A DNA stretch of 64,000 nt from Psammoneis japonica. Lineage: Eukaryota. The stretch spans positions 248,001 through 312,000 of the forward strand of contig QPGO01000027.1 in assembly GCA_008632985.1 (NCBI GenBank). The letters run 5' to 3'. Both the position numbers and the translations under genes were made by a program. Below are positions 10,732 to 63,541 of the stretch, one piece after another. The notes under the pieces were generated by a model, which was given only the letters and a program-made list of their open reading frames with translations, ran no database searches and was not told where the DNA came from. Position 1 is the first letter of the stretch, and each line of letters begins with the position of its first letter.

Positions 10732-11736
10732 GCTTGTGCTTTGGAAAAGGATACGCGTTAATGAAACGCCGTACTGCAGAGTGACAGCCTCCGGCTCCGC
10801 TCAGGTCATCATGGTCCGATTTTCGCTTTCTCCGATCGCTTTGCAGCACATGCGCCTATCCTGCAAGCGTCGGCCGTTTCTCGTCTGTACCTTGAGTCCA
10901 GTTGAACGGGATTTCGTTCAAATCGAGCTCGGTGAAGCGATCTGCTCTACGTGTGCTATGGTACAAACCTGTAGTGGCATGGTGTTAACATATATATAAT
11001 GAATAAAAGGGTACAAAAATGTGGACATTTTCAAAAAGAAATGCTGCACATAAAATGTGCAAGAAACAACATTTGAGTGAACGTCGAAAAACGAAAAACC
11101 TGCGCGAGCGGACGCAAAATCTGAAACAAGTCATCGGAGCTCGAGTCGATGTTGGCCAGTTGCGTAGAATGTAGAATGTACGCTGAACATGCACCAGGGA
11201 AAACCCGGATGTGTGGCCAACTTTGGCCAAAGCTGGACACAAGGGTGCGAGACCCGTCTGGCCGGCATCGAAGATCCAGGAAGTTCAAAGAGCGCGCAAT
11301 CCGATGAGATCCAGCATTCATCTAAGACCCGTTCCATTGCCCTTGCGAACCCCTGCGAAACCTGTGAAACGACATTTTTCAAAAATGTTTGAAATGACGT
11401 CACTTTCTGAATGTTGACGTCTCTGATGCTGTCACTGATCTCGCATTCGTAACGGCGAGAGCTGCGAGGTGCGCGGGGTTCGCTTCCACCGTGCTGGGAT
11501 GAAGCACCAGCATCAGTGCTGTTGACACAGAAAAAGCAAATCAACCACGCTCATGCGAACGTGCAATGTCTTCGTTTGATCAAGATGCACCAGATCTCAA
11601 TGCATTGGTGGCAATGAGACCAAGGAAAAAGAAAAAGAGGATGGCTCCATTGGCAGAACTCATTGCTGTGTTGTGTCTGCACGCTGACGCCATTGAACGA
11701 TGAGAATCATCATGCGAGCGTTCTCATGCGAGATGC

Positions 11737-12968
11737 ATGCTTCGGGACTTGCTTGATTCACGCTGTGCCTCCTTGCTCACCGGAGAATTTGCAACTGTTT
11801 TCAGAATGCCTCCACACGCCATGGAGTGCCTCCGAAACAAATTGCATCCGCACTTGAAGCCAAAGTTGTCGGATGCCAACACAGCCGGCCGACAGGATTG
11901 CGACCGGAGGCCACTTGCGGTCGATGAAAAGGTGCATCTCGGCTGCATGGGGTCTGGAGGTTGTTCTTTGGGTGGTCTCATTTTTGCTTTTGGCTTGGGT
12001 CACACGAGTGTGGAGGACACGTTGTTTGATTTTTTCAAAGCCATTGTTGAAGCCGGTGTTGGCACCACACATTTTCCCACGACAGAGCCAGAGCTGCGAC
12101 ACTTGGCAAATCAATTTTTACAAAACAAGAACAACCTTCCGGAATTGTGCGTTGGTCATGTGGGAGCAGGAGATGGACGTGCTGTGAGAATTCGCATGCC
12201 AGGCAGCGACGAATGCGAGAATCCAATGGCGCATGTCAATCGGAAGGGTTTTCCAGCCATCAGTGTTCAAGCGATTGCAGATGCAGTCTTAAAGTGTCGA
12301 GTGTTGGACGTCCATGCCACAGGAAATGCTCATGACAGGACAGCTTGGGAATTGTGCACCACAGCCACGAGATGGGAGAATGAAATGCGATCAAGCATCG
12401 AGGCACCGAGAGGCACTGCTGCATCTCTTTGGATGAGGCTTGTGGCTGTGGTGCAAATCGGGTTGGTCCATGGCCAGGCACTGGGCTTGCAGAGCGTGAG
12501 CCACACAAGGATGCCTTCAACTGTCATCTGAACAAAGGCCACCACAATTGCATTGAGCGCATGTGGGGCAATGTCCACCAGAAGTTTGGGATTTTTTGGC
12601 GTCCTTTGCTTTTTCCATTGCGCAGGTGTCCGGTGGTAATTCAATCTATTTTTCGTCTGCACAATTTCCTGAAAGACCTTGGTGTTGATGATGATGAATT
12701 GTGCGTTCCTTCAGTCAACAACGGACCGGGTCAGCATCGACAGGGTGAGCCATTCCTTTCCTCAGACGAGCCCATGGGGCACGACCACAACCTGTGTCCC
12801 ATGGACCAATGCTGGCTTGAAGACAGGGCCATCCCACGGGTGCGTCATGGGCAGTGTCCAATTCGGGAACAGATCACAGATTCATTGAGAACTGCCAACA
12901 TTGTTCGCCCACCTCGCAGTGGCGGCAGAAATGCAGTGTCGGCATTGATGGCATCGAATCACAACTAG
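11737..12968 (+). pseudogene. Harbinger (DDE_Tnp_4-type) transposase, frameshifted near 12430; true start probably further upstream
   Basis: FRM, GAGDG, NRKGFPAISVQAIAD, GNAHD, DEAC, FNCH, IERMWG, LHNF match the Harbinger/IS5 DDE core. Confidence 0.85.
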
Positions 12969-14548: not shown

Positions 14549-16447
14549 CTACTCACTGCTGTCTGAAGACGGAAAATCACCATCCGCAGTGTTGTTGTCC
14601 ACATTGGCACACGATGCAAATGCACAAACTTCCGACCCGCCAGTGCAATCAGGGTGCCCACAAGTCAGGGAAGTAGGGTCATCTTCGTCAAGGTGAGCTT
14701 TGCAACCAACACGATGCAAGTGACGCCCACAATGTTCAAAGTTGGAGCACATGTTTGAAGACCAGGAACCCAAATCCGAGCAGTTGAAATCGTGGTGTTC
14801 CGCCTCGTCTTTCGTTCCAACTGGCTCATTCCGCTTGTTGCATTCTATGTAGCCGCAGTGCACTAGTTCATTGCGTGAATCGCTCTTGCTGTCAGACTGG
14901 ACATCTTCTTCCAGCTCTGTAGACTCATTCCCTCGGTCGTCGCCATCGGAGCAGTTTCCCGCAGAGACTTCCCTGGATTTGTTCCTTGCGCAGCATTGGC
15001 GGCTCTTGTGTTTGCAGCAAAGGTTGAGTTGGCGCAAATCATTGACATCACAAACAGCACAAAGAACATACAAGGCACTCACCTCATCGTCGCCGCTGCT
15101 GGACGGCACAGACAGAAGAAAAGAAGTGTCGTCGTGCTCAGTGTCGCTGTCCAACTCAACTTTTCGCGCTTTCGCCACCTCTTTCTCAAGCTCTTCGCAC
15201 TCACTCCAGGCTCTTTTGCACTGCTTGATCTTTCTCTCACGCTTGCTCAAGTCACCAGCCTTTCCATGCCTCATGGCCCGAATCTCATCGGCCAGTCGCT
15301 CCGACTTGTTCTGTGCGCGGTCTCTGTTCTGCTGCAAGAAAAACATGTTCTCCTTGTTTTCCTCATTCATCATGTCGCTTTTCATCTCACTGACCACATT
15401 CAAGATTCTTTCAGACATGCTCTGTGACTTGCTGGAGGAGCTGTCACCCTTTCCCCTGCTGCGCAAGATGGAGTTGGCGGCGTCCAGGCTGCGTTGAATG
15501 GTGCTGGGATCCGACGAGTCAACGCCACAGCCACCTGGGAGGAGGAGCACAAACTTGTTGAGAACAGATGAATCACCATTTTGGTCAATTACCTTCCACC
15601 AATAGAGAATGGATTGGTCCAGTGGGTCAGTCAGATCAAGAGCATTCTCAAAACCTTCCGGATCCGAGCCGCTCTTCGTGCCGACCTTGTGCACCACTGT
15701 CAACCTGCTGCGAAGCTGTCCAACCCTCAATTTCAACACATCTGGAGCACGGGAAGAAATGGTCTTGTCATTGGGATTGAAGGCTTTGAGAAGTGGGTCA
15801 TCTGGAAACCGATGGGTCGGTTTGTACTTGTCAAAATTGTTGTGCAAAACAGCAATGAATTGTCGGCACACAGACATGAGGGGCGGGTCGCCTTCGTCAA
15901 GCACAACACGTGGAGCCTTTTGGTGAAGGCACTGGAGGGGTTTCTGGAAGCTCGGGTCACTTAAAATCTCAATGATGCGAGAATCTTCTTTGGAAGCGCT
16001 GAAGGGGCGCTTGTCGATGCGTGCTTCTTCCTGCCGGAAGACGCAGAACCACGTCATCAGACGCTTCTTCAAGTGGCCAGAATTGCCTGTGGTGGAAATG
16101 TTTTTTGGTGCAGGATTGTCATCACGAACATGCTTACACTTATGGCAAAGAGATCTGAGACTGGCCACTTTCATTGACATGATGCTCGCGTCCGCAAGCG
16201 TCTTTTCTTCTGCAGACAGTTCTTCGCCGTCACAAACATGCAAGGACATGAACAGCTTTTGATCAAAGAGGTGAGGGGTTGGCACAAGCCCCATGTCCTT
16301 ATCATAAGGCATACCACCATTGTTGCTGTCTTGCATTGGTGGCACTTGGTTGGTGCCATTTGTGTTATCAGTGCCGTCGCTTGAAGACGACATGGTACGA
16401 TCGATTTTTTGTGTTGATTGTTTTCTAGAGCGCGTCTCGTGATGCAC
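14549..16447 (-). CDS. Harbinger accessory (putative DNA-binding) protein with SAP-like segment, coiled coil and Cys/His-rich tail
   Basis: 632-aa ORF between the TIRs, convergent with the transposase; MKVASLRSLC..TTGNSGHLKKRL resembles a SAP motif. Confidence 0.6.
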   Translation of the reverse strand: MHHETRSRKQSTQKIDRTMSSSSDGTDNTNGTNQVPPMQDSNNGGMPYDKDMGLVPTPHLFDQKLFMSLHVCDGEELSAEEKTLADASIMSMKVASLRSLCHKCKHVRDDNPAPKNISTTGNSGHLKKRLMTWFCVFRQEEARIDKRPFSASKEDSRIIEILSDPSFQKPLQCLHQKAPRVVLDEGDPPLMSVCRQFIAVLHNNFDKYKPTHRFPDDPLLKAFNPNDKTISSRAPDVLKLRVGQLRSRLTVVHKVGTKSGSDPEGFENALDLTDPLDQSILYWWKVIDQNGDSSVLNKFVLLLPGGCGVDSSDPSTIQRSLDAANSILRSRGKGDSSSSKSQSMSERILNVVSEMKSDMMNEENKENMFFLQQNRDRAQNKSERLADEIRAMRHGKAGDLSKRERKIKQCKRAWSECEELEKEVAKARKVELDSDTEHDDTSFLLSVPSSSGDDEVSALYVLCAVCDVNDLRQLNLCCKHKSRQCCARNKSREVSAGNCSDGDDRGNESTELEEDVQSDSKSDSRNELVHCGYIECNKRNEPVGTKDEAEHHDFNCSDLGSWSSNMCSNFEHCGRHLHRVGCKAHLDEDDPTSLTCGHPDCTGGSEVCAFASCANVDNNTADGDFPSSDSSE

Positions 16448-31195: not shown

Positions 31196-31599
31196 TACAA
31201 CAAGGTTGGTATGCAACAGACTCCAAAGGAAGATTATCGCGGTGACAACACGAGAAGAGTTGCGTTCAACTCGCAAAAAATGCTCCATCGGATGGTCGTA
31301 CAGACTTACGGGCGGTCCGGAGATAGCCTTGTACACTTTTTACGTAGAAGCTACACGAGAGACAAGCACGTACATTCCTACACAGACGCAGTACAAAAAC
31401 AGAAAGCATGACACGCCCATCACGACGACACCGCGTGACGACCATGCATCAAAATGGCGTCGTCCGTGTCTTTCTGTAGCTCCTCTTTCACTTACCCGAT
31501 TGCTCCAAAAGGGCCAGGGAAAGCTCATATGCTTCTGTTATGATGAAATGATGTAAACTAAAGTTGTTCTTTTCATTCCACAATCTCAGAATACAGTGC

Positions 31600-34500
31600 A
31601 ACAGATTGTCAAGGCGCACCCGCACGTTGGCTGCACTGTCAGCCAAATCAACGCCATTTGCTGTTCACTCTAGAACAACAACGGAGATGTTGTGCCCCAA
31701 CATGTGCACTCTACACTCACTTGTTAAATTACAAAGCTAATGATTCTTGTTGGCTGAAACTCTTGAGCCACTTTTGAGACTTGACACAATGACCCATTTG
31801 TCCCGTCCTTCACCCTCTAAATTTGTTGCATTGGCCAACAAATGGGGCAAATGAGTCACATGTTTCCACTGCAGGTCACAAACTGCCTTGCAGCCGGAAG
31901 AAGTAATCTGTGCCTTTAGAACCACCATGATGCACTGGTCTGCCAAGTCAAACTCCGCATCACCTTCTGGGTGCACGTCAAATGCGCGGCAAAATTGCTC
32001 CACGACAAGTCTGAGCTGTTGAGAGCTTGAACATCTTCAAACACCACAGACCCAAGCTTCTGTGTTTGTGTGTTTATGATGAAGTCATCCTGATGCTGTG
32101 TCTGTGACTTGGACTTGTCGTCAGACTGCCGTGGCCGTTGCAAGGTAGAAGCGACATTCAAAGCAAGCTTTTCTCTCTCAGGGATGGCTCATGGCAAGGG
32201 AGACCCTGCAGAACAAAACAACAATGAGGAAAGACAACATGTGTGTAAGTTGAAAGAATGTGAACGTGTGAGTGCTCAACAAAATGCACAGCATGAATGG
32301 TGATGCATGAGTTGCGTGTTGATGCAACAAAATCGGCGGTGTCAACACCAATCTTCAGTTCAAAATTTTGCCATGATCCACCCATGTGAACCTGGACATT
32401 CTCAAGCTTGTCTCGCATCTTATGATGTGACGCACCAAATTCCATTGAGAGCACACAGGTTCCAACCTCAGAGACGATCGCATTTTTCAAATCGGTGAAA
32501 CGCCATTGTCCGTGTTGTTTTGCGTGTTGTTTTGAGCCGCGAGCCAGAAAACACTCCCAAAAACTGTTCTGCAGGGCGAAATGCACTGAATCTACACAGA
32601 TTTGGGTTGCACCAGGCCACGTAGAAAGTGAACGGGCCAAAAACTCCAGTGCGCCCACTTAAATGAGTGAATGAACCAATCAAAATAACGTCTGATCAAG
32701 TTGCCCCCAACGCATCATGTCATTTTCTGATGCCCCAGGTCCCAGGCGACGTCGACGACGTTGGAACAACAGCCGCTGTCCACCAGGTCTGGATTTGTAA
32801 AATCAGAGATTGGCCTCTGGAAGCAACCACACTTCTGGATTGTGCTGCCAGATCAATTTTCATTTTAGAAAGGGCCGCTGCTGTGCTGAGCACTTGTTGC
32901 CATTTTTTTCTGCTTCGACACGCAGCATTCCCAACCTTTGTGTTTCTTGCTTGTGCTGCCAACAATGTGGACTTGTTGGCATTCTTGTTCTCAGTCTCTT
33001 GCTGTGCTCTTTGTTGGCCCAGTTCTCATTTTCTCATTGCTGTCAAGGAACCCCGTCTCAGTGTGGCTGAGAGCGGGCCAGCAGCCAGACAGAGCTTGCC
33101 TGGCGATGATCTTTGTGCGTTTTCTCCACTCCCTTGGTTTCATCAACATGACCTTCAGGCTCATGACCTTTTCATGTTCCAACACACTCCTGCAACAGCT
33201 CAGGTTGTTGACTGGTGGGCTTTTGTTGTCTCACCCACCCTTCAACAATGTGGGCTTCTTGAGCCCTTGTGTTCTTGGCCTCATTTTTGTGCTCTTCATT
33301 GGCCCAGCTCTCATTTTCTCATTGCTGTCAACCCCTCTCAGTGCTGCTGAGAGCAGGCCAGCCAGAGAGATTGCCTGACAATGATCTTTGTGCATTTGCT
33401 CCACTCCCTTGGTCTCATCAACATGCCCTTCAGGCTCATGACCTTTTCACATTTTCCAACACATTTCTGCAACAGCTCAGGTTGTTGACTGGGCTTTTGT
33501 TGTCTCATCCGCCCTTCCATGATCTGGCACCTGGCTCAGACAAAGTTCTGCCCTTGCCACTGCTTTGTCAGGAAGCCCATTGGTGATGAGCTGGTTGGGT
33601 TGAACACCAAAAGCTGTGCCACATCAGAGGGTGTTTCAAGGCCACCAATCATCAATTTCCACGGGTCTTGCACAAGCCGTGCATGTCATTTGGTTGTTTT
33701 CTGTGTTTGCAGCCCAGCCTCTTTTTGAGGGCAGCTCTCCACTGTGCACTGAGAGCCCTTCTTCATTGTTTTTGTGCTTCTGCATTGGCACGTTGGGGGG
33801 AAGGCATTGCTTGTTTTGTGACAGGTGTCTGTCTTTTGCCCACACTCCTGGTTTCCTGCTGTGGCTTCTGCTGTTTTGTTTTTGCTGTGGTCCACTCCTG
33901 AGATTTCTTTGTGGGTCACTTTTTGGTGTTTTTCAACTTGATCTGCACATGTGACACTTTTTGGCATTTTTCAACTTTGTCTGCACATGTGACTCTGGAG
34001 TTGTCAACTTTGTTTTTGGCACTGGAGTCCTTGCCAGGCTGTTGTCTTTTCCTGTCAGTTCTGTGTTGTTGGAGCCACCAATTTCATCAGAGTGCTGCTC
34101 AGTCATGGAAGTTGACCAAAGGTCAAGGTGCTGGGGGTCGTGAGATTGCCAACATTGCAGGAGCACTGCAGTGTGTGTGTTTTGTTGTCACATTGTCATG
34201 GTCAACTTTTCCAGCTGAGATGTGGTTGAGTTGGGCACTGAAGTGGGCTTTTCATCTTGGGGATGATGGACAAACTGAGTCTGATGCTGAAGTCTGAGAC
34301 AGTTTGGTGGTGTGCCAGCCAAACTCAACTTTTGTGCTCAATGTGTTGTCTGACCACACATGCCACCATGTGACCAGGGCACAATCTCAGCCACACAATC
34401 CATGATGAACTCACCCGTCAGTTGGACTTTTCTTGCATGCAGGCAGCATCACTCCACACCCAGCCATCAGCTGAGCACACAACCATTGACAAACCCACTG

Positions 34501-37500
34501 GTCAGCTGGATTTTTCTAGTCAATTGGCAGCCACACTTGTCTGCTGAACCCCCCAACCTGATGGGTTTGTGCCCATGTCCCAAGATGCCAAAAAGAGTGT
34601 TCCGCTTGCAGCAGAATGTGTTTCAGCATTTTTCATTGTGGAGGACTGTTTCATCCCCTGGCTGCGCTGACAACCCAGATGTGAGGTGCACCGCAGTGCA
34701 GTGCACAAACAGTGGCAACTTCTTTTCAATGGACACAACTTCTCCTGTTTGTGGAGTGACACGCAGATGTCTGGTCTGCTGGATGATGGGGGCTGTTTTC
34801 CCAGAGCCAGAGCTCAAAGAACTGGCACTTGGGTTGTGAGCAGCTGTGACTGGTGCTTTTGTTTGCCCCCCCCCCAGTGGCGGGGTTTCTGCAGGACTCA
34901 CATGATGACATTCAAGGTTGTGACTCACAGAGACCAGGAAGTTGGCACAGCATCATGACACGGAAGCTGAGGTGAGGGGGGCAACCTGCTCAAGAGTTGG
35001 TGGTTGCTTGGCAAAGGACAAGGCAAACTGCAGTTGCCTCCTTGCTTGCTCAGTGTGCAGGGTTGCAAAGAAACTGGTTGGCTGTGGTGGAGCTGATGTT
35101 CAAATCAAGCACAAGAGAGGCTCACCTGGAGGCATGTGTGAGCCATTGCTGGTTGCTTTGACACAGCATCTGGCTTGTTGGCAACAAAGTTTTTGGGTGG
35201 AAGTGTGGCAGAACTTTTAAAATGCAAATTTTGTGTTTTGTTTTGCAGCTCACAACTTGTGCCCCAATGTCAGCTGCAGATTGGAGTTTTGGTCATTGAT
35301 CAACCCACATGTGTTCACCAATGGTGGTGCCTCCAATGACTTTGACACAGCAGCTCTGTGCCTCCGATGGAGGAAAATTTTCTTGGGAGTTGCTTTTTGA
35401 CAAATTCTCTGACACACCTGCTCCCACACATCACAACATGTGATGGACTCAGTCCTGCCCCATGCAGCTCCTGGGTCTCACCAATGAAGGTGCAGCCATC
35501 CCTGATGAAGTGACTGAGTTGTGTTTTCCCAATGACAGCTCTTTCCACATGTTGACATTGGCAATGTTGCTCAAGCTGATGTGCCTGATTCTTTGCCAGT
35601 TTGTGGGCAAGAGATTAACCCTGTGACTGTCCACCATGGTTTTAAATTGATGCCAGGCTGGCACCAGCAGCCACCACAATGTCCCTCCTTGGGGGGTCCC
35701 TTTGGTGTGCAGATGTTTGGCTGGTGCACCCTGTTTTGACCTCCAGCTCCACAGCTGGTGCCAAATGTCTGGTCTCCTCTCCCAGACACACAGGCCAGAA
35801 TGATGGACCATGGCTCTCAAAGCATTCTTGCCTGGCACCCACAAAAGACACTTGGATCCTTCAGCCTGCAGTGGTTTGGCTGGTGCACTCCATTTTTACC
35901 TTGAACACAAAGCTGGCAAAATGCTCAGCTTCTTTTTGTTGCAACACTTGAAAATGCCAAGTGTCCAAATCATTTGTTTTCACAAAACATTGGCACTCAT
36001 TGCTTGGAGTGTTTGTGGGAAGGCCGGTTGTTGCAGCTGGCCAACTCAGTTGGAAAAGTTGAGATCAGAGCAGCTGATGCAGTTGCCACAGAAACCAAAA
36101 CACAATGTGCAAGTCTCGTCAACCAGCAAAATTGGGTGTCTTCCCATTTTCCTCCACAGCTTCATCATGTGACTGGTTGTGCCATTGCCTCCACACCCAA
36201 CATGTCACAACAAAGATGACATGAGTGCCTTGTTGTTGTTGTTGTTGTTGCCGTTGTTTTGCTGTTTTCCAAATGAAAACTGAGGAGCACTCGTGAGTCC
36301 TCATGGTCTTGCTCGAGCAAGACAAAAGCAGCAAACATGCAAAACAAGAAGACTCATGATGCTGGAGAAAAGGATTGGATTCAGAAGGCAGCAAAAGACC
36401 TGGCAGAATGCAGGGAAGCACCAGAGAACAACCACAGCCATGGCAAAAAAGCAACAGCAACAGCAATGATGAAACCACCAGACAAGGAGGAGCACACAGC
36501 ACACAGATGAGATGCAAGAGCAATGCCAGGAGAGCATGGGTGGTGATCAGCATGGTGAAGACAACAGGTGTGGTGATGGTGAGCAAGAGGAAGAAAATGC
36601 TGGCAGGCAGGGCCAACAGAAAAAGCCCAAAAAAGGAGCAAACAGCAACAGGCCATGCCAGCAACCACACAAAGGGACAGCTGCTTGTGGTGCAATTTGT
36701 TGTGCACACTTGACAGACACAAACACACTCAGTTGTGTGCAGGCAGTGGTTGACTTTTGAGTGCAAGACAGAACTCTGACAAAAATGTGCTTGTGGAGCC
36801 AATTTGCAGCCAACAAAATGATTGGCTGAAATGGAGTTGTTGCTGCTGGGATGCATCTGAGTGTTTTCCACCTGGCAAAGTGGGAGGTGAAAATCAAAAA
36901 CAGGCTGTGGTTGCTGTGGCGGGTGAGAGTTTTCCCGCCTGATGGGTGGGGAAATGTGACTTGCAGACATTGTTTGTGCAGCCAATCAGCAGAAAACATC
37001 ACATGTCAGATGGGACATTCTTGCATTTAGGACAAAAAATCCTGCCATGCAGAGATGGCCAGATGTCAGGTTGTCTGCACCTTGGACATTGTTTTGTTCA
37101 CACAGCAAGCCCAGCATGAGTGCTTGTTCAAGTCCAGCTGGGACAAACACCAGGCAAGTTGGCTGCTCCTGTCTCTTTTTCTTGGAGCATTTTCTCTCCA
37201 AGTGTGGTGCTCCCCTTCTCATCACACATTGGCACCATGACCCAGTGGTTTTTTGTCTCCATTTGTCTTTTTCTTTTCTTTTCTTTCCATCATTTCCAGC
37301 AGCACTGTCAAGTGCTGCTCCACTGCCACCTTTTGCACCAGCAAGACAAAAGTCTTGCTCACCTAAAAACTCTCATGAGCGCCATGTGGGTTGGACCCAC
37401 ACTTCTTAGATGTTGATCGCCCATCAGTGAGAAAACATCAAACAGCAACTTCTTTGTCAATGGGCAGCTCTGCATGCAATCTGCACCCAGCAGAAGCACA

Positions 37501-39300
37501 ACAGAAGACAGACGCACTTTTTCACCTTCTTCTGAGTGTCCAATTTTTCAGCATGTGTTGCCCCTGTCATGTTGATTCCTTTTTGGGTTGTGGCACAGTC
37601 TGGGACCACCACTTTGTTGTGATTTTCAACAGATCCCTTGTCTCTTTGGCTGTGCCCACAGATGCACACTGAGATGGTCAAACACTGCTCTTGGACAGAG
37701 CTGTGTGCTGTCATCCTCAGTGCACACCACAGAAGCTCCTCAGTGCAATGCAGATGCTCTCAACTGGGTCCTGTTTGTCTTGAAAATTGTGCAACACACA
37801 TCAATCAGATGATTTTGAGCAGGCTGGCGCAGCACCAAAAGCTGCAACCACATCATCTTGCAGCACACTTGTTCTTTGCATCAATCTCATGTTGCACAAC
37901 ATGGCTGCACTGTTTCCAGACAATGATGCGCACTTTGCTCATGTTTTGTCAATGCAATTTCTTCATCTTGACACCACCCTTGAGCTCCTTGCACCCCAAC
38001 TTTCCTTCCTTGTCAGATTTGTCCATTTCTCTGCTTTCATCTTTCTCAGAAAGTCTTTGGCTTGTCAGGAGTCAAAGTCATGTTTGTCAGCTGCTCAATT
38101 GCCTCTTTCATGCAGCCACTGTTGCCAAGCATTTTCACAACAAAGTTGGCAATTTTCTCCTGTGCTGGTTGCTTCTTGCTTCCTGTCCCATCATGTGCAT
38201 CATGGCCACACTCTGTGAATTTTGGCAGTGTCTTGAACACCAGCCCATTCTTGGAGCTTCTTGTGCATTTTTTGCTCAGATTTTTGGGTGGCTTCATTGC
38301 TGCAGATTTTTTGCTGGTTGCAAAATTGCAGAACACCCCACAGAAGCAACCACGCACCCATGCAGCCTGTGCTGTTGGGTCAATTTTCACCCCCCCCCCN
38401 CCCCCCGGCAGTTTTGCTGCTGTGCCTTGTCCTTGGCTTTCCCAGTGTTTTTGCTGATGCCACCACCAACACGGCCCCCCACATTGTTCACATCCTTCTT
38501 TTTGTTCTCATTCTTGCACTCTCTTTCTTGGCCTGCCTGGCTCTCATTGCTTTTGCTCCTGTTTGCTGAGATTCTCCCTCTTTTTTTGATCTCATGGACT
38601 CTCTTGTCTCATCCAATGAGCCAGCTGGTGCGTGTGCATGATGTCAGAAGAGACAAGTTGGAAAATGCACAAAAAACTGTTTTTGTTCAATGTGAAGCAA
38701 GCTGGGTTTTCAATGTCAAAAGATGAAATGGTGCACTCAGCTGACGGAGGGCAGCGGAGGAGCATTTGTGGGTGATGGGGGGTGGGGCACAGCTCAGCGC
38801 CTGCCATCATGAAACTCCATGCCTTGCCACAGGTGAGCCTTGTGGGAGACAGCCTTGTGGGAGACATGAAAGTTTTGAAGCAAGAAAGCACAAGTCAAAT
38901 GGGCTGGCAACCAAAGCCCAACACAACATGGCTGTGTCAGCTGTGCACAAGTGGGAGGCTTCTGCAAACTCCCTTTTTGCTTCTTGCAAGCAACGCTGTC
39001 ACACAATGTGCTGCAAGACAGAGAGAGGCATTCAAAAGATGGGCTGATTGATTGATGCCCCCATTTTTCAAGGGCTCCAAAACAAAACAAAAAATGGGTG
39101 TGAAATGCTCAGCTTTGTCCGTGCAAGCCCCCAGCTTTTTTGTGCACTCTGCTGTGCCTCCTGTGGTGTGGCACACACCACCACTCTGCCCTTCTCTTTC
39201 TTTCACACTCTGGTGGTGTGGCCTCAAGCCAGCGTGTTTTCGAAAATTCTAGGACAGCAGTCTACCCTCTCTGTCTTCTTGTGCTGTCCCATCACTTCAC
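31600..39300. mobile_element. Highly degenerate repeat-derived tract; includes a possible Ty1/copia (CoDi-type) gag remnant on the minus strand near 37.5-38.5 kb
   Basis: Near-total TpA and strong CpG loss; minus-strand peptide RIIVWKQCSHVVQHEIDAK resembles the diatom copia gag IWGQC motif; boundaries set from composition only. Confidence 0.55.
33003..33517. repeat. Imperfect direct repeat of about 240 bp (about 33003-33243 and 33288-33517)
   Basis: TGGCCCAG.TCTCATTTTCTCATTGCTGTCAA ... CCTTCAGGCTCATGACCTTTTCA ... CTGCAACAGCTCAGGTTGTTGACTGG occurs twice. Confidence 0.9.
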
Positions 39301-53279: not shown

Positions 53280-54260
53280 TCTCACTTCAGATCCGAATCG
53301 GCATTAAAATGTCGCATCGATCCAAAAGTTGTGCGCCAAAATCACAGTGCGTTTAGCTCAAGCAGGCGTTTCTTTAGAAGAACTTGGAATTGTGACACAT
53401 TAAATGACAACAACATCATCTACAGAACAAGAGCTTTCCAATGATGTTGTTTTTATTTCCACGCACCTGACAGATCCGAGTCATCATCCAGATGTCCTGT
53501 CGACGCCGCAGTTGCGCGCCAAAGTCATGTTCCGTTTTGCTCAAGCAGGCGTTGCTTTAGAAGCACTTGAAATTATGACACGATAAATGACAATAACATC
53601 ATCTACAGAACGAGAGCTTTCCAATGATGTCACTTTTATTTCCATGCCCCTGACAGATCCGAGTCATCATCCAGGTGTTCTGCCGACCCCGCAGTTGCGC
53701 ACCAAAATCCCATTGCGTTTTGCTCAAGTGGGCGTTGCTTTAGAAGTGCTTTAAATTATGACACAATAAATGACAATGACATCATCTACAGAATGAGAGC
53801 TTTCTGATGATGTTGCTTTCATTTCCATGTCCTCAACAGATCCGAATCATCATCCAGATGTCCTGCCGACCCCGCAGTTGCGCGCCAAAATCCCAGTGCA
53901 TTTTGCTCAAGTGGGCGTTGCTTTAGAAGAACTTGGAATTATGACACAACAAATGGCAGCAACATCATCTGCAGAACGAGAGCTGTCCAATGATGTCACT
54001 TTTATTTCCATGCCCCTGACAGATCCGAATCTTCATTCACACATCCTGCCGACCCCGCACTTGCGCGCCAAAATCCCAGTGCGTTTCGCTCAAGCAGGCG
54101 TTGCTTTAGAAGAACTTGGAATTGTGACACAACAAATGGCAGCAACATCATCTACAGAATGAGAGCCATCTGATGATGTTGCTTTCATTTCCACACCCGC
54201 AACAGATCCGAATCTTCATTCACATGTCCCACCGACCCCGCACTTGCGCGCCAAAATCCA
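53280..54260. repeat. 183-bp tandem array, about 5.3 units; same family as 12965-14545, inverted
   Basis: Unit anchors at 53404, 53587, 53770, 53953, 54136 (exact 183-bp period). Confidence 0.95.
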
Positions 54261-54674
54261 AGGCATTGCTGGCACACACCTGCAACATTTTAGGTCGTGG
54301 TCCGCCCAACTGGGTTTTCTACAACTGCTGCTCTGCAGCAGCTGTCAGCAGCAGGCGTTGCTCAAGAAGTTCTTGTCTCACCCGGGCCTTCCTCGCCCGA
54401 GTCTCCCTCGCTTGAGCCGTCACCACTCACATGCGCTCGCCGCAACAATGCAAAAAAGGGCAACACCCTGTCTGCATGCACACATTTGGGATCACTCAAT
54501 TTGCTTCACTTAACTGCATCGCTGTCAAACACATCGTAGCGAGCACTGTGTCCACAGCCAGCATTTCATTTTGCATCCCTTCCATTCTTGACGGCCGCCT
54601 CCTCCTGCGCACCTGGCAGCTTTTCAATCATCAACTCTGACACGGGTTGTGCAATGTCACACGACTGGGACCTT

Positions 54675-56630
54675 TCATTCCTGGGACCCAAGAGCAATTA
54701 GAAATGGTTGCCGGTTAGGTGTGGGGCGCTCAACACCCCAATGGTGACACTGCGTCCACACAGCAACGCCTGGATGATGGCAGAGACCGCACCCTGCTTG
54801 GCACGCTGCACAGCAACAGCGCATCATACGACTGAACTTCCCAAGATTGTGCCCATCCTGTTCGAACGTCGTCTTCTTAACCATGAGTTGAAGCAGAACC
54901 ATGCATTCTTGAAACAGGGGCTTCTCACCCACACCCGCAAGCTTTCGAGTTTTTTCTTCATGTTGTTGAGATGCGCGGCATTTTGAAATGATGCACACTG
55001 ATTGTTTGTTAGGACCCCATGCAACAGCATGGCACAGCAGCTCTTGCAACTCCTGAACTCGCTTCAGCGCTTCAGACAAATTCTTCTGGGTTTTCTGGTT
55101 CCCGATTGCCTGAAACTCTTCATGCACGAAGTCTGGATCTACATCCGGGGCCTTGGATGCTGTGGCATCGAAGTTGTCTGTAAACGATCCGTTGTCACAG
55201 AGTTTGTGGGTGTCCGCAAAAAAATCATTCAGCAATTTTTCCACAGTGACGCGACGACAGCACGAGTGACCGAAGTGTCTCCCCAGCGCTCTTCTTGTGA
55301 CCAGCATCAATCTTTGAAAAAATCCCATTGGTGTGCTTGTTTTGATCAAAGTGGGAAGTCGTTGTCAGACGCTGCTTTTCCATGCACATGCAGCGTCGCA
55401 GGCACGCAATCAATTCTTCCTTTTTCAACGCAGCACCGTCTTTTCCCGTCACATTTCCACTGCGTGCGATTGCCATGCCCATTAATTGTTGCTTGGTGCA
55501 TTCCTTAAGGTCACTCTTGCCTGTTGGCAGCCCCATGCCAACAATGTTGGAACGATCCTCCACGGAGTTGTGGCGCACATTGTGCGGTTGAAATTGGTCG
55601 AGCTTCATCTGATCGGCATTTGAGAACACAGCCACAGCTCGAGGATTCACTTTGCCTTTCATGTGATTCAACCGCTGTGCTGATGATTGTTCAACAATGC
55701 GCCCATCAGCTGTTGAACAAACACCCCCATTGGTGTCACAGCATGACCCACCTTTCGTGAACCAGTTTGTGACATGATGCACCGCCTGAGTGATGTCGTT
55801 CGCTGAATGTCGTTCCGCAGTGGCGGTGGCAGCACATTTCAAAAGTGTCTCAGCAAACTGCTCAGTCTCTAAATTGTCACAATCAGCAGCAGACAGGGAA
55901 TGGTCAAGTGCCTTGAGAAATGTTGCTTCCCCAATCCCCTTGATGCCGCTGCCGTTTTCTGTCACGTCACACCCCATCACCACCGCCCACCAATGCACCA
56001 CAATGATGCCAATTTTCTTTGTTGCCACATGCAGTGGGTGTTCAGTTGCAACCTCATCAGTTGATGTAGTTTCCATGTCAACAAAGCGACACTGCTCCGA
56101 ACCCCAACTGTCAACAAACAGAATCTCACCAGCGCCATGCCCAACGTGATCAGAGTCTCGGCACATTGTGATCGCCGATGCAACTTCTCGGCCTGCTTGC
56201 ATGTCAGCCTCTTGTGGAGCAACCACATGAGGCACGTGACAGCGATCGCAAATTTTGGCGCACATTGCAACAAACATTGATGGAATCCGTGGAGCAGTGT
56301 TCCCCGTCTCTTCACTGCACCGACGAGCATGTTCCGGCAGTTTCTCGATTGGCAGAACCCCATCAAAAATGAAAGTGATGTCCCATTGAAGAATGCAGTG
56401 CAAGAAGACAACTGTCTGGTGAAAATCTTGCAAGGATCGAGAGAAGTCTCCCTCAATGAATTGGTCTCTGTGACGGACAGCACAAACAAACACCAGCGTG
56501 CCGGCATCCAAGTGAACCGGAGTGCCTTTTCGTTGCAGTTGCGCAAATGATGAGAACCTTTTGATGTGTTTTCGTCTGTGAAACAGACATCAGGCAGGCA
56601 TTGTGCGCCATCAACATTGTCACAATCACA
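54675..56630 (-). pseudogene. Degenerate Exo1/XPG (FEN1-family) nuclease with SAP-like segment and SWIM zinc finger
   Basis: DAG, FIFDG, PHVVAPQEADMQ, DSD, GCD..GIKGIG (XPG-N/I and H3TH); TKQQLMGMAIARSG..KKEELI; CAACQAGCGLCHH then TISNCSWVP; frameshifted. Confidence 0.75.
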
Positions 56631-56807
56631 GACAGCAATTGTTTCTATCGTGGCAGTGAGGTGAATGCGATGTGTGTGCTTTCGATCGAGCGCGAGCGAT
56701 TTTGAGATGGATTTCGAGTTGTCGTACAGTCTGTCCATCGAACTTGAAAAGAAACCAGGCCTGCGGGGAGCATTGACCACTTGTCTTTCTTTGTGGGTGT
56801 CGGTGCA

Positions 56808-57200
56808 TGTGTGCCGTTGCATGCTGCATTGCCTGCACGTACGCAGGGCCCTGCTGCCAGGGCCGGCATTGTGACGGCTGAGTGGCGTGGCCACCGCAAC
56901 GGTGACGCGGATGACCGTCACATTTGATGTCTCATGCCATTTTTGGGGCTGCAGCGAGGTGCACGGACACTCTTTTTTTCCAATTTATCACCATAACAGC
57001 GCATCGCACAAACTCACTTGTTGTTTGACATGTTTTCCCCAGTGTGACTTTTTCATGTAGAATTCACGACAAATTGTCTTTGCACACAACTGAGTGCATT
57101 TTTAAACATGCCACGCCGGCAATCCCAATTTTTCAGAACTTTCGAGCTCTCCTGAAAAACCGTGCCACGCACCCGTCGTAGGGAATTTGTCAATTTTTTA
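56808..57200 (+). repeat. Direct repeat of about 390 bp, copy 1
   Basis: Aligns colinearly with 63606-64000 (GCCATTTTTGGGGCTGC, GGACACTCTTTTTTTCCAATT, AGCTCTCCTGAAAAACCGT, AGGGAATTTGTC). Confidence 0.9.
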
Positions 57201-57324
57201 GGATGTCCCCACAACCTCTCATGTCCTCAATGATGATTCCAAGAATCTGAAGAATTCATCTGCACTAAACAACCCACACCCTTTCAAAATCCAAGGGACA
57301 CACTTTCAAATTCAGACGGACAAC

Positions 57325-57378
57325 CCAACCCGACTGCCCGACCCCCCGACTGCCCGACTGCCCGACTGCCGGACCGAC
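57325..57378. repeat. (CCCGACTG)n short tandem repeat
   Basis: Directly visible. Confidence 0.85.
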
Positions 57379-57749
57379 ACGAAAAAGTCTGCAATCACCA
57401 ACCACTGAGTGGTCAATGAAAAGGTCAACAGACTCTTGCGCAAGGATTTGTGAGTCTGTCAGGATGTGCAAGCTCCGGTGCAAATCTGCGTGCGAGCCTG
57501 TTGCCATGCATGGCACGAACACCGTTAAAATTTGCGCTGGGTCTTACGGAGATCTGCGCGGGGCTTCTGACTCAGAGAACCTTGCATTTGCAACCACACT
57601 CACATGTGATTGTGTTTTACACACCTCGAAGACGAAACGTGATGGAGGAGGGAGAACAGACGGTTGCGAAACATGATGGAGGGGGGAGAACAGACGGTGG
57701 GAAAACACCCATGTGACGAATGTGTTTCCTCAACATGACATGTCAGCGG

Positions 57750-60360
57750 AGTTCGGTGAGTCAAGATTGCTTGAGGACCCCTGACCGCGCATGGCAACAC
57801 GTGCTCTGCGCAGCTTGTGCGTCCTGACAGAGTTGCAAATCTTTGCTCTCGCAGAAGTGAGACAGTCGATGCACCAAGTTCACATGCAGGCGATTTGTCA
57901 CCATGCCCTCCTGGTGTGTTTTGTGTGGAATTCTCTGCAGATGAGTTTTTTTTTTGCATGCAGAAACATGCGGGGATTCCGGAGGCATCGCAACAAACCA
58001 TCCATCTGACTTCCGCGAGAGTCCATGAGGAGACCTTTGGGTGCATGCGAGCACGTGAAGAACGGTTGAAGCATGGACTCATGATGGAGAATGCTTTTGT
58101 GCCGGCAGGGCTGCATGTCGTTGATTGCAGTTTGTTCATGGGTTGCTGTCTGTTGGCGTGCTGCGCTGCCATGGGTGGGGATGCCGCAGAAATCAAGCAG
58201 GTGCCATTTTTTTGAGCAAAATCAACCAAAAAAAGTGTCATCATCACGACTCACAAGACTCAACATGCAGTCACAATGCACAAGGCCAAGCTTCCATCTC
58301 CCACCACAGCCTTTGCCAAGCGACTACCCGACGTGCTCCAGGTCCAGGTGGGACCTCGTGCTGCTGAACTGTGACATCGACAGTTTTTTGAATCACGTCG
58401 TATGTCGTGCACGCAGATTTCTGCATGATTTTTTTGACATTTTGTGTCATTTTACGGCACACTCATTGATCAATCCATCGAAAAACTTTTGACATTTTTT
58501 GTTACAGCGCAATTCTATGATGTCTTAAGAATTGCGCAGGGCACCTGCATTTGCAAAAACACTGAGTGGCAAGAGGCACAATTGCACCACAAACTTGGCT
58601 GTTTGTTTGATGTTGAAGACAAATGCATTCATCAATTAAATTCTTGCACTGCAGAGCTCGCACGCAGAATTCTGCGGGCCCAATGTCACATGGAGTCCCA
58701 CCTGGGGCTGGAAGACGTCACCAAGTCAACCTGCCGCTTCTCACCAAATCGCTCTCATGCCCTCAGGATCATTGTAAAAAGCTGTGCTTTCCACACCATC
58801 ATGTCCGCCATCATTGAATTGGGCGGGGTGCATCAAAGCAGCACCACAACCTTTGACTGTGCAATTTCTCATCCCCAACAATTTTGAAATGTTTGCGAAC
58901 ACCCACACATCTTGTTTGACCAAGGTGCCATCTTTCAAATGGCACACTCACAAGAAAGAGTTCTGTTGTTTGCTGGAAACAAAGGCTGCAGATGCTTTGT
59001 CAATCAGCAAACAAGAGCATGCAATCCAATCTGTTCAATGTTTGCTGCTTTCCGCACAAGAAACACAAAGCATTTCCAACAAGCCATTTGAATGACAAAA
59101 AGCCGTGGTCCAGAAAATGCCACTGCATTTTTTGGTTGGTCCACTGGAGCAAAGCTCGTGACGGGTGAGGACCAGAACCTGAGGGTGCTTGCAGCTGCTT
59201 GTCGGTCTTCAACTTGGATGGGATGGTGCACCAAAAACAAACAACATGGCCAATGTTCTGCCCATTTGGAAAAGGACTTGTGCGACATTGCAGCCAACCC
59301 ACAATTTGCTGCTTGCTGGGATGTGCCTGTGAGCAGCAACCTGAGGCAACTTGATGACACCATCCACAATCAGCAAGGCAGTTTGAGTGCTTCTCAGAGC
59401 CAGCAACAAGATTTCATCACATCATGAGGAAAGCATTCTCACAAAAACAGAAGAACAGGGGGTGCCAGCTGCTGCCTGTCAAAATTCTGAAGATTTCAAA
59501 TCTCCTCCTGCCAAATGCACATGATCAAGGTTGAGGTCTGCAAGTCCTGCTCCAGCACAGACAGTCACACCCGGCACTGTTCTGCCAGAAATTCCAGCTC
59601 TGGCTGTGGGAGAGCCATCATCACACAAGGGAAGGATGGAGAAGGGACACTTGCTTTCAGCGGGCTCCTCCCTGAGGCACTCCGCCTTCAATCTCTTAAA
59701 GGTGTCTGCCAGGATGAGCTCACTTGCCTTGAATTCGCAATTCATCTGCCAGATGACTCAAAGAGTGAGAATGAGGGGGATGGGGATCTGATTGTGGAGT
59801 TCAAGAAGATTGCTCTTGGTGCTCTGACTGCAATTGGCACCGATTCTTTGCAGAACCTGTCTGGAAAAACAGTGTCGGCAGCTGGCCAAAATGTCAAGTC
59901 AGCTTGGAAGAGCATTTTTGACGCCATTCCAAGTGGCCTTTTCCTTCCAGAAGAAGAGTGTTGTCTGTGCAAGTGGGCAAGAGATGATTGTCGGCATTCT
60001 GAAGGTGCAAGACTTCCTGCTGAAAACTGTGAAAAGCTCCCAGACAACAACCATCTGTGGCTCACAGACGTTGCAGTGCACATCATGCGCCACATCACAT
60101 GTTGTTGTGACATTTCAATGCGCTGCTTTCCAGCTCTGATGACATGCTTTGCAATGCTGTTTCTTCATTGTCCCCTCTCCAAAGAGGAATTTTCAAGTGT
60201 CACGACTGTTTGTGATCAACTCCATCACTTGCACATTGTTGATCAGTGCCATCTCAACAAACACTTTGAGAAGTTTCATTTCCACTCCTGACAAACAATG
60301 TGGGTTCTGTCATTGGCGGTGCATGGTCACAGATGACTCAAAACATTTTGACTGAAACAG
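57750..60360 (+). pseudogene. Degenerate transposon-like coding region ending in a possible Ulp1 (C48) peptidase-like segment
   Basis: Chain of broken ORFs almost lacking Tyr; WLTDVAVH followed downstream by CHWRCMV resembles Ulp1 WL.D and HW motifs. Confidence 0.35.
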
Positions 60361-63300: not shown

Positions 63301-63539
63301 CGAGATGACATTCAGCTTGCAAAGCTGTTCAAGCTGCATGTTCCTCGCGAGCCTTGCGAAGAGCAGCACGAATCTGGTGACCCAATGAGTGAAACCAAGA
63401 ACAACATTCCGCGTGACACAATCCCTGAGTGGGTCTCTCAATTTGAGTGTTGCCGCTGGTGAATCGTCAAGATGATGATGAAATTTGTGCTGATGCACAA
63501 GAGCAGAGCGACAATCAATCAATCTCCACGTTTCTCGCA

Positions 63540-63541
<2 letters not shown>

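Follow-up and report, generated by a model that had tools for sequence, protein, structure and literature searches.

The window, the 64-kb stretch of DNA analysed here, contains an unstranded single-copy block at 32870..39245 in which TA dinucleotides are almost erased and CpG is scarce, as defined by TA and CG counts, contig depth, a lack of Pfam matches and its edges. The reading we favour, with a probability of roughly 60%, is that this is a silent, probably foreign or mobile-derived block, present as a single copy, in which A:T>G:C hypermutation at TpA, along with a slower decay of CpG, is near completion. Between 32880 and 39240 (6361 nt), 8 TA were found against approximately 279 expected from the density in the TA-normal DNA of the window (Poisson P 6e-107), and 41 CG against approximately 335 expected at the same TA-normal density (Poisson P 4e-92). 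The observed/expected ratios in this focal block were 0.02 for TA, 0.11 for CG, 1.98 for CA, 1.74 for TG and 1.24 for AA, compared to 0.49 for TA, 0.86 for CG, 1.30 for CA and 1.29 for TG in the remainder of the window, and the TpA depletion of the block amounts to 50-fold. The surviving sites are CTAG at 34517, TTAA at 35218, 35616 and 35643, TTAC at 35897, TTAG at 37028 and 37407, and CTAA at 37364. The first-pass annotation, made by eye, had given about eight TA, seven in YTAR context and one TTAC, and the recount returned exactly the same eight sites; its description of CpG as scarce and of TG and CA as dominant agrees with the ratios above. The longest TA-free runs span 1651, 1131 and 1843 nt, in a window where the median TA gap is 15 nt.

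More than 97% of the TA sites of the focal block were converted, and its edges are sharp to approximately 100 nt or less. The sharp boundaries described earlier hold fully on the right side, where TA resumes at 39250 and dense CG at 39336. On the left side, the CG density drops past 32774 and the final TA is located at 32866, but the TA reduction begins already at approximately 31918, within the adjoining high-copy repeat, and the left TA edge is therefore a step from partly to fully depleted DNA. Inside the block, BLAST identified a tandem duplication of approximately 280 nt (32960..33517, plus strand, 83.7% identity), the two copies of which differ by 20 transitions and 10 transversions. No Pfam family was matched by the 21 ORFs of at least 100 aa (E<=0.1) or by the 77 ORFs of 45-99 aa (E<=0.01), and no relative of the block was found within the 64-kb window, even in purine/pyrimidine code. 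Logan contigs from run X1 matched 32618-36981, 36953-38406 and 38392-40722 with 1, 0 and 1 letter differences, respectively, and thus reproduce 8.1 kb with two letters off, an agreement that is not independent support, since the window may itself derive from X1. At 38391-38406, where two of these contigs join, lies a poly-C tract with one N.

An HMM identified four TA-poor blocks, the focal block being one, which together occupy 21.4 of the 64 kb; the TA observed/expected ratio of the window's normal DNA is 0.61-0.66, and nearby genes have CG ratios of approximately 0.93-1.02. Block A (11180..12965, unstranded; 6 TA, TA observed/expected 0.06, CG 0.76) and block B (14551..16299, unstranded; 12 TA, observed/expected 0.12) are TA-poor with normal CpG. 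Block A includes an ORF at 11704-12528 (plus strand) with a weak match to DDE_Tnp_4 (E 9e-4, 19.4 bits against a cut-off of 24.8 bits), while block B holds most of ORF P0241 (14552-16450, minus strand, 633 aa), for which 43 relatives, the best at 57% identity, and no matching Pfam family were found. Block E (53788..63999, unstranded; 47 TA, observed/expected 0.07) extends past the window end. Its first part, 53788-58500, carries 7.6 TA and 47.3 CG per kb, with CpG near normal up to approximately 58500, and its second part, 58501-63999, carries 2.0 TA and 19.8 CG per kb, a low CpG level. Within block E, tblastn located a frameshifted copy of an XPG-like 5'-3' exonuclease gene (54425..56562, minus strand; a protein of approximately 730 aa with a Cys/His-rich C-terminal part), onto which P0243-P0245 aligned in three to four frame-shifted pieces. 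One homologue carries the JGI label '5'-3' exonuclease', P0243 and P0244 matched XPG_N and XPG_I weakly, and nothing was found when viral contigs were scanned with the exonuclease family. ORF P0242 (454 aa) lacks Tyr entirely, and for two proteins of the window the best identity in a search of 5.8 billion clusters did not exceed 64%. With a weak DDE_Tnp_4 match in block A, an orphan family in block B, an XPG-like pseudogene in block E and no recognisable gene in the focal block, a viral or transposon origin of the targets is a possibility. An Exo_endo_phos ORF (9926-10606) and a 134-nt inverted-repeat pair (16681/19050) are not TA-poor despite their likeness to mobile elements, and targeting is therefore not simply of 'all mobile DNA'.

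The normal DNA of the window contains 44.0 TA, 52.6 CG and 145.0 TG+CA steps per kb (sum 241.6), compared to 1.3, 6.4 and 230.2 (sum 237.9) in the focal block; the sum in the other TA-poor blocks is 234-256 per kb. As the gain in TG+CA approximately equals the losses of TA and CG, the pyrimidine-purine steps were kept and recoded solely by transitions. Homologous proteins allowed the changes to be polarised. At Tyr columns of P0244 the window has His or Cys in 15 of 24 cases, against a background of 24/649 (3.7%), and in a second set of Tyr columns in 13 of 26 (background 4.8%). In block B, 7 of 15 Tyr columns of P0246 have turned into one of these two residues (background 7/384, P 6e-8). Over the union of homologue Tyr columns (n=72), the window residue is Cys 17 times, His 12, Phe 14, Tyr 3 and another residue 26 times. 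Metagenomic relatives of the exonuclease gene (L001-L004) have normal TA ratios of 0.61-0.66, and four aligned TA of a repeat copy at 56792..57198 (plus strand; 81% identity to its partner at 63589-64000) are TG (1) or CA (3) in the partner. Since residues that are Tyr in outgroups are now His or Cys in blocks B and E, and the relatives of the exonuclease gene are TA-normal, the TA loss is derived. The direction TA>TG and TA>CA was thus demonstrated in blocks B and E, and by analogy would apply to the focal block. Both strands were affected alike (761 TG vs 703 CA in the focal block; Cys:His 17:12 in the Tyr columns), and TG and CA were not clustered beyond the level of normal DNA. Two earlier suggestions, an A:T>G:C process at TpA and the destruction of Tyr codons, are hereby supported.

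The loss of TA was fastest at RTAY, slowest at YTAR and intermediate in mixed contexts. YTAR makes up 7/8 of the survivors in the focal block compared to 19% in normal DNA (binomial P 6e-5), and the bias recurs in the other TA-poor blocks (24/65, P 7e-4). With an expected context baseline of host DNA or distant relatives rather than the true ancestor, survival fell from TTAA (0.39) over CTAA/TTAG (0.18) and further contexts to GTAC (0.035), ATAC/GTAT (0.023) and ATAT (0), and the bias persisted when TE relatives served as the baseline. Depletion was hence unequal among the NTAN contexts, and a single uniform rate was rejected in favour of flank dependence (likelihood-ratio P 5e-11). An additive per-strand model fitted the data (residual deviance 15.4 on 12 df), with rates of 2.16 for T, 1.45 for C, 1.08 for G and 0.51 for A as the base 3' of A; written around T, the same rule becomes ATA>GTA>CTA>TTA, and the flank that is read may be either the base 3' of A or the base 5' of T. 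The first-pass annotation had proposed that YTAR is spared and TAY is the target. The flank dependence is real, but the sparing is not, as only 7 YTAR are left in the focal block of approximately 53 expected, and because this is still a depletion of approximately 7.6-fold, YTAR is better described as slowed.

The loss of CpG is confined to the TA-poor blocks and reaches 6.4 CG per kb in the focal block compared to 52.6 in normal DNA. Blocks A and B and the 53788-58500 part of block E are TA-poor yet retain near-normal CpG at 47-50 per kb, and the two losses are therefore separable in time or cause. In the repeat pair 56792..57198 / 63589-64000, CG in one copy stands opposite TG or CA in the other at 17 columns in one direction and at 8 in the reverse direction. 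Within shared domains, CpG loss would come after TpA loss. CpG decay accounts for about half of the gain in TG and CA (46/85 per kb). CpG survival was 0.41-0.47 at SCGS but 0.12-0.16 at WCGW, an order matching spontaneous deamination, which depends on duplex stability.

The process had initially been thought of as repeat-directed, which the copy number data do not support. Contig depth, counted at a 90% identity threshold and showing present copy number, was 55-95 (approximately 67) in the focal block, 55-64 in the unique flank and 2100-7842, summed, in the adjoining high-copy repeat (31331..32654, unstranded, delineated by depth and TA/CG density). This repeat is only partly TA-depleted, with 21 TA and 36 CG per kb, against 1.3 TA per kb in the single-copy focal block. 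By these depths, TA depletion does not follow present copy number.

A RIP-like mutator triggered by duplication could nevertheless have acted if the focal block was once a repeat that has since diverged past recognition. Three TA-poor blocks carry mobile-element-like genes or repeats, and the adjoining high-copy family varies from copy to copy by TG<->CA changes at two adjacent bases (31467/8, 31549/50, 31634/5, 32099/100 and 32369/70). Saturated recoding of TA and CG alone would by our estimate place copies approximately 10% apart, and old copies could therefore drop below the 90% depth threshold. We still regard this origin as unlikely, given the single-copy depth of the block, the far milder depletion of the abundant repeat, the absence of any match within the window even after reduction to purines and pyrimidines, a code unaffected by transitions, and the hypermutated NCLDV insert of Bigelowiella natans, which is reported as single copy (10.64898/2026.01.13.699255). 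Another route starts from the thymine of TpA, which in silenced DNA could be modified (e.g. hydroxylated by a TET/JBP-like enzyme) and then turned into C by faulty copying or repair. Because T>C on one strand is A>G on the other, at the palindromic TA step adenine and thymine damage leave the same A:T>G:C signature, inseparable by sequence, and the flank rule can equally be read around T. Thymine-modifying enzymes and 5-hydroxymethyluracil are present in some protists. To our knowledge, however, no thymine-modification pathway yields clean, saturating T>C transitions, and a literature search returned no paper joining 5-hydroxymethyluracil, dinoflagellate and TpA. As the sole experimental report of the signature proposes, albeit without proof, adenine deamination (10.64898/2026.01.13.699255), the thymine route also appears improbable. 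A single ADAT2-like deaminase acting on both adenine and cytosine would explain both losses without cytosine methylation; it agrees with the restriction of CpG loss to TA-poor blocks and with the ADAT2 enzymes cited in the same preprint as deaminating A and C in DNA (10.64898/2026.01.13.699255). We consider it quite improbable, as blocks A, B and 53788-58500 kept their CpG, the change falls on the 3' position in TA and on the 5' position in CG, and the excess of SCGS over WCGW survivors fits spontaneous deamination.

ADAR-like editing of element dsRNA, fixed through reverse transcription and reinsertion, would produce A>G changes on both strands, and a U 5' of the edited A is usually favoured by ADARs according to the preprint (10.64898/2026.01.13.699255). 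Such editing is very unlikely here: TA alone was lost while AA and CA are in excess, the genes that were hit belong to DNA transposons or nucleases by type rather than to reverse transcriptases, the focal block is an in-place single-copy domain with sharp edges and near-complete conversion, and the B. natans mutations appeared in integrated DNA during clonal growth (10.64898/2026.01.13.699255). TA is under-represented in most genomes, including the normal DNA of this window, and a native composition, or selection for nuclease or restriction avoidance or RNA stability, might accordingly have removed TA and CG or never provided them. This is highly improbable in view of the change of conserved Tyr to His or Cys inside a frameshifted pseudogene whose relatives are TA-normal, the conserved total of pyrimidine-purine steps, and the lack of a recognisable coding function in the focal block on which selection could act. 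A sequencing or assembly artefact is barely conceivable. Though the stretch is present in one study only and the poly-C tract with its N falls where two contigs meet, the X1 re-assembly reproduced the region at normal depth, no chemistry-induced artefact strips TA and CG while leaving adjacent genes normal, and the signal is biologically coherent, with Tyr changed to His or Cys at conserved columns.

In the favoured reading, hypermutation of silenced DNA at TpA, foreign or mobile-element-derived DNA would have been silenced while present once in the chromosome, and a TadA/ADAT2-like deaminase would be recruited to the silenced chromatin domain. This enzyme would deaminate the adenine of 5'-TA-3' in DNA on both strands, and the inosine product would be copied as G, giving TA>TG and TA>CA at a rate set by the flanks (RTAY fastest, mixed contexts intermediate, YTAR slowest). 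A slower CpG>TpG/CpA decay, most simply by 5-methylcytosine deamination, would proceed in the same silenced domain. Adenine deamination, like 5-methylcytosine, is putative here, and the chemistry is drawn by analogy from the B. natans preprint, where it is itself unproved. We infer that targeting would be by chromatin or foreignness rather than duplication, and that the focal block is probably of foreign origin. No deaminase family was matched in Pfam by window ORFs of at least 130 aa. A bolder version, which we put forward only tentatively, is a widespread, chromatin-domain-wide eukaryotic defence: in an organism other than B. natans, TpA hypermutation would have reached saturation in one third of a 64-kb region that bears genes, with the flank code as a fingerprint of a TadA/ADAT-type enzyme and CpG lost subsequently.

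Targeted A:T>G:C hypermutation of chromosomal DNA is so far described in a single 2026 preprint on a single alga, and should the present DNA come from a species other than B. natans, the process would be no single-species curiosity. The identity limit of 64% for two window proteins and the occurrence of the stretch in one study only argue, though not conclusively, against the annotated B. natans reference. The window displays the end state of the process: hardly any TA is left, Tyr codons have become codons for His and Cys, and the order of purines and pyrimidines is unaltered. Absent from the main text of that preprint are the quantitative flank rule, with RTAY lost fastest and YTAR slowest and the effects of the two strands adding up, which is both a biochemical prediction for candidate deaminases and a recognition mark for the process in other genomes, and the order of events, with TpA loss followed by CpG loss in the same domains. 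A natural TA-specific DNA adenine deaminase would also be of interest for base-editing work.

Among known systems, fungal RIP acts by C>T changes and thereby creates TpA. RIP, a C-to-T change (PMC3318451), shares with the present process the defence-like character, the dinucleotide-specific and saturating transitions, the sharply bounded domains and the destruction of coding capacity. It requires duplicated DNA, whereas the focal block is single copy at present, and the change here is A:T>G:C with TpA destroyed; RIP was therefore rejected, since TpA is lost rather than enriched and the block is at single-copy depth. Decay of 5-methylated CpG resembles the low CG (0.11) with TG/CA excess in silent blocks next to genes of normal CG, but TpA loss is beyond its reach, and it covers only part of the TG/CA gain. 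The adenine attacked by tRNA adenosine deaminases is preceded by a pyrimidine (U33-A34 in tRNA). The natural substrate of ADATs is tRNA rather than DNA. The 'YAC' preference of a TadA-8e variant, a TadA-derived editor (PMC13109818), resembles TA followed by a pyrimidine, if the flank is read as the base 3' of A, although the 3' order here is T>C>G>A and not C-specific. ADAR hyperediting is likewise antiviral or directed at repeats, and its A>G changes fall on both strands. ADARs edit an A less often when the base before it is G than when it is A, C or U (PMC8586724). Here TA alone was lost, with AA at 1.24 and CA at 1.98, and the apparent substrate is the chromosomal DNA itself, in situ.

The closest system is that of Mettrop et al. 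(bioRxiv 10.64898/2026.01.13.699255), who describe viral DNA integrated in the B. natans genome that undergoes de novo hypermutation from TpA to TpG or CpA; the statement in the first-pass annotation that no mechanism was described is thus out of date, and the TpA hypermutation is of an already known kind. Of the 231 mutations that mutation-accumulation lines gained in two hypermutable viral regions, 230 were A>G or T>C, all of these at TpA. A de novo rate raised approximately 1000-fold in the domain belongs to the B. natans type, and one of the regions, the NCLDV insert, is reported to be single-copy and transcriptionally silent; an ADAT2-like deaminase is proposed as an unproven candidate (10.64898/2026.01.13.699255). 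Shared features are the exclusive TA>TG and TA>CA changes on both strands, the local TpA-poor, CpA+TpG-rich domains, and targets that include DDE-transposase-type and unannotated genes. The focal values (TA 0.02, CA/TG 1.74-1.98), taken over the whole block rather than in 1-kb windows, pass the B. natans cut-offs of TA <=0.43 and CA/TG >=1.52 (10.64898/2026.01.13.699255). Here the flank rule is measurable and CpG is also lost, whereas the main text of the preprint presents neither and does not contain the terms 'CpG', 'context', 'flanking' or 'tetranucleotide' (10.64898/2026.01.13.699255). The process is also saturated here, with 97% of TA gone, while the B. natans NCLDV region retains 3.3% TpA, and TA-poor blocks make up a third of this window, compared to 124 TpA-poor, CpA+TpG-rich clusters in the 95-Mb B. 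natans genome (10.64898/2026.01.13.699255).

Between positions 32880 and 39240 (6361 nt; the focal block), only eight TA dinucleotides were counted, in the contexts CTAG, TTAA (three times), TTAC, TTAG (twice) and CTAA, exactly the list that the first-pass annotation had drawn up by eye. Taking the density in the TA-normal DNA of the window as baseline, approximately 279 TA and 335 CG would be expected in the block (Poisson P 6e-107 and 4e-92, respectively), and 41 CG were found. The observed/expected ratio was 0.02 for TA and 0.11 for CG, compared to 0.49 and 0.86 in the rest of the window, and those of CA and TG were 1.98 and 1.74, compared to 1.30 and 1.29. The longest TA-free run spanned 1843 nt, the median TA spacing in the window being 15 nt. 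The right edge was sharp: TA reappeared at 39250, followed by dense CG from 39336. At the left edge, CG dropped after 32774 and the last TA lay at 32866, with TA already thinned from about 31918, within the repeat adjoining the block.

The sequence from 32618 to 40722 was reproduced in three pieces by Logan contigs of run X1, with 1, 0 and 1 differing letters, which excludes an assembly slip; this support is not independent, since the window itself may derive from run X1, the sole DNA run containing the stretch. At 38391–38406 there is a poly-C tract with one N, whose length is uncertain because the Logan contigs 36953–38406 and 38392–40722 end and begin there. A second run, X2, covered 31000–31222, parts of 31950–32512 and the sequence from 39466 on, leaving the focal block uncovered, and is neutral on expression; no RNA run containing the stretch was listed.

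Since transitions preserve the purine or pyrimidine class of a base, conversion of TA and CG into TG and CA must conserve the total of pyrimidine–purine steps. Normal DNA held 44.0 TA, 52.6 CG and 145.0 TG+CA per kb (sum 241.6), and the focal block 1.3, 6.4 and 230.2 (sum 237.9), so that a loss of 88.9 TA+CG per kb was matched by a gain of 85.2 TG+CA; in the other TA-poor blocks the sums ranged from 234 to 256 per kb. The focal block is recoded DNA and not DNA of odd composition. Strand-coordinated clustering of TG versus CA (z -3.4) is not specific to it, since one normal segment gave a similar value (z -3.1).

A two-state hidden Markov model of TA occurrence delimited four TA-poor blocks, together 21.4 of the 64 kb: block A (11180–12965), block B (14551–16299), the focal block with its partly depleted edges (31918–39581) and block E (53788–63999), which continues past the window end. 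In the normal DNA between them, TA stood at 44 per kb, with observed/expected ratios of 0.44–0.66 for TA and 0.79–1.02 for CG, and genes for a sulfatase, a PP1-type phosphatase, an SDR, lipases, a GMC oxidoreductase and an ABC transporter were recognised. Rfam and tRNA scans of the whole window gave no match. The sulfatase (21027–22871, intron-less) and the SDR (19312–20085) have best relatives at most 54% and 63–64% identical, respectively, among 5.8 billion protein clusters, mostly unnamed metagenome or bacterial proteins. Both sit in a eukaryotic context, with the PP1 phosphatase and its STPPase_N domain at 24592–25576, and are candidates for acquisition from bacteria. On the minus strand, the C-terminal GMC-oxidoreductase domain and, after it, the beginning of an ABC-transporter ATPase share one open frame (6267–7904), which represents either a fused gene or two genes not separated by an in-frame stop.

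The direction of change was polarised in blocks B and E, since the focal block is without a recognisable relative. On the minus strand from 56562 to 54425, block E contains a gene copy disrupted by frameshifts, whose intact product would be about 730 aa long; of the three homologues, one bears the label 5'-3' exonuclease, and two gave weak XPG_N and XPG_I matches under the Pfam cut-off. For the block E open reading frame P0242, neither solved structures (E<=1) nor Pfam (E<=10) gave a match, and a scan of viral contigs did not recover its family. Where homologue P0244 has Tyr, the window encodes His or Cys at 15 of 24 columns, compared to 24 of 649 at other columns; homologue P0245 gave 13 of 26 and 30 of 623. 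The same was seen in block B, where alignment of its open reading frame P0241 with the closest relative, P0246, gave His/Cys at 7 of 15 Tyr columns versus 7 of 384 (P 6e-8), and eight further homologues displayed the same excess (P 5e-6 to 0.04). When the Tyr columns of the two blocks are combined into a union of 72, the window has Cys at 17, His at 12, Phe at 14, Tyr at 3 and other residues at 26. Tyr columns now occupied by Cys or His mean that TAY became TGY or CAY, and the Cys:His ratio of 17:12 indicates approximately equal change on the coding and template strands. Four metagenomic relatives of the block E gene (L001–L004) have normal TA contents (observed/expected 0.61–0.66, 21–33 per 500 nt); the depletion is therefore derived in this genome and no trait of the family.

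Repeats pointed the same way. In the pair 56792–57198 and 63589–64000, all four TA that could be aligned in one copy correspond to TG or CA in its partner, and the reverse never occurs. Copies of the high-copy family at 31331–32654 differ by adjacent TG/CA double changes, as is expected where an ancestral TA or CG became TG in some copies and CA in others. The P0241 frame itself (14552–16450, minus strand; 43 relatives, in an alignment too variable for a locus scan) is intact over 633 aa despite recoding of most Tyr codons. It belongs to no Pfam family; its residues include 5 Tyr, 22 His and 26 Cys, and the last 180 aa, rich in Cys, His and Asp, lack an equivalent in the relatives. Block E also contains a (GT)35 microsatellite at 63542–63612.

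The loss of TA depended on the flanking bases. Among 88 survivors in the pooled TA-poor blocks, survival relative to normal DNA differed by context class (chi-square P 4e-8), being highest for TTAA (0.39), followed by CTAA/TTAG (0.18), GTAA/TTAC (0.13), CTAC/GTAG (0.12), ATAA/TTAT (0.08), CTAG (0.07), ATAG/CTAT (0.06), GTAC (0.035), ATAC/GTAT (0.023) and ATAT (0). A claimed sparing of YTAR was thus correct as to the bias, which is replicated in the remaining TA-poor blocks (24 of 65 survivors, compared to 19% in normal DNA; P 7e-4) and persists with L001–L004 as baseline (16% YTAR; P 7e-8). It did not hold as sparing, since the focal block retains 7 YTAR of approximately 53 expected; all other contexts together retain 1 of approximately 226. 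The YTAR bias is a matter of rate, not of exemption. An additive model, in which one flanking base determines how fast the adenine of each strand is lost and the contributions of the two strands are summed, gave an adequate fit (residual deviance 15.4 on 12 df), superior to that of a single rate (P 5e-11), with fitted rates of 2.16 for T, 1.45 for C, 1.08 for G and 0.51 for A. Since TA is palindromic, the base 3' of A and the base 5' of T fit the same numbers. Tests of the flank side gave, on product tetramers, Pearson r of 0.38 and 0.48 for the two models, compared to 0.65 for a uniform split, and, on Cys/His at 29 Tyr codons, log-likelihoods of -21.9 and -20.6. The surviving TA are unlikely to be back-mutations, as, of the 1464 tetramers of the focal block with a central TG or CA, only 79 (5%) are TTGA/TCAA, yet TTAA accounts for 3 of its 8 TA.

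Loss of CpG in the window was confined to TA-poor DNA, and no CG-poor but TA-normal stretch occurs in the 64 kb. Blocks A, B and 53788–58500 retain 47–50 CG per kb, 58501–63999 retains 19.8 and the focal block 6.4. CpG survivors were enriched in SCGS (0.41–0.47) over WCGW (0.12–0.16; P 0.002). The simplest reading is that deamination of 5mC would act on the same silent domains as a second process, slower than the first.

A repeat-directed process had been proposed, for which the present state of the DNA offers no support, while a repeated state in the past is conceivable. The focal block has a contig depth of 55–95, compared to 55–64 in the unique flank, while the repeat to its left (31331–32654), with a summed depth of 2100–7842 versus about 67 for unique DNA, is much less depleted (21 TA per kb). 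No further relative of the block was found within the window by purine/pyrimidine-coded 26-mer self-comparison, and self-BLAST, as well as tblastn searches of the window with the open reading frames from every TA-poor block, returned only an internal duplication of the focal block. Terminal direct or inverted repeats of the block were searched for with nothing convincing found; its 21 open reading frames of at least 100 aa had a best Pfam E of 0.11, none of the 77 frames of 45–99 aa matched at E<=0.01, and six-frame translation gave nothing protein-like by eye. The first-pass interpretation therefore stands in its A:T>G:C class of chemistry and in the destruction of Tyr codons, as polarised in blocks B and E, but neither in repeat triggering nor in absolute YTAR sparing.

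Further repeats lie in the window. The copies of the 31331–32654 family, which has no Pfam match, differ by transitions at 50 of 62 variant places in run X1. Arrays of a 181–183-nt satellite at 12975–14535 and 53288–54262, in opposite orientation and 39 kb apart, adjoin blocks A and B (left array) and E (right array). They are 70–78% alike, with many differences being TA/TG/CA step changes, and may belong to a single element family or delimit a large composite element. Inverted repeats of 134 nt at 16681–16814 and 19050–19183 (96% identical) flank about 2.2 kb of normal TA content with several open reading frames, and may delimit a young terminal-inverted-repeat element (yet) untouched by the TA process. 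An Exo_endo_phos domain (E 4e-8) is encoded on the minus strand at 9926–10606, where TA is at normal density. The open reading frame may be a retroelement endonuclease or equally a host gene; in the former case, not all mobile DNA would be targeted.

The most probable explanation for the recoding is deamination of the adenine in 5'-TA-3' at the DNA level, on either strand, by an enzyme that would be TadA/ADAT-like and recruited to silenced foreign chromatin. A TadA-derived editor with a 'YAC' preference has been described (PMC13109818), which demonstrates that both neighbours of the adenine are readable for this enzyme lineage. ADAR-type RNA editing would also act on adenine but is unlikely, given that ADARs tolerate A, C or U as the base preceding the target (PMC8586724), yet AA and CA are in excess here. 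In addition, the affected genes are no retroelements, and the recoded domain lies in place and has reached saturation. Modification of thymine would leave a signature identical to that of adenine deamination; we consider this route improbable, and no paper joining 5-hydroxymethyluracil, dinoflagellates and TpA was found.

The full-text literature search found TpA-erasing hypermutation reported only in a preprint on Bigelowiella natans (Mettrop et al., bioRxiv 10.64898/2026.01.13.699255), whose main text does not contain the words CpG, context, flanking or tetranucleotide. In mutation-accumulation lines of that alga, 231 of 302 nuclear mutations fell in giant-virus and virophage regions, 230 of the 231 being A>G or T>C and all 230 on TpA, and the giant-virus region, which is integrated, is reported as single-copy and transcriptionally silent. 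The B. natans genome holds 124 clusters that are TpA-poor and rich in CpA and TpG, the TpA-poor genes being enriched in DDE endonucleases and reverse transcriptases, and an ADAT2-like protein is the deaminase proposed, though not proven (Mettrop et al.). The low identities of the sulfatase and SDR of the window to their best relatives, and the occurrence of its DNA in a single study, argue against the annotated, much-sequenced B. natans reference as its source, without amounting to proof. The kind of process recorded in the P. japonica window is accordingly one already described, but only just (Mettrop et al., 2026).
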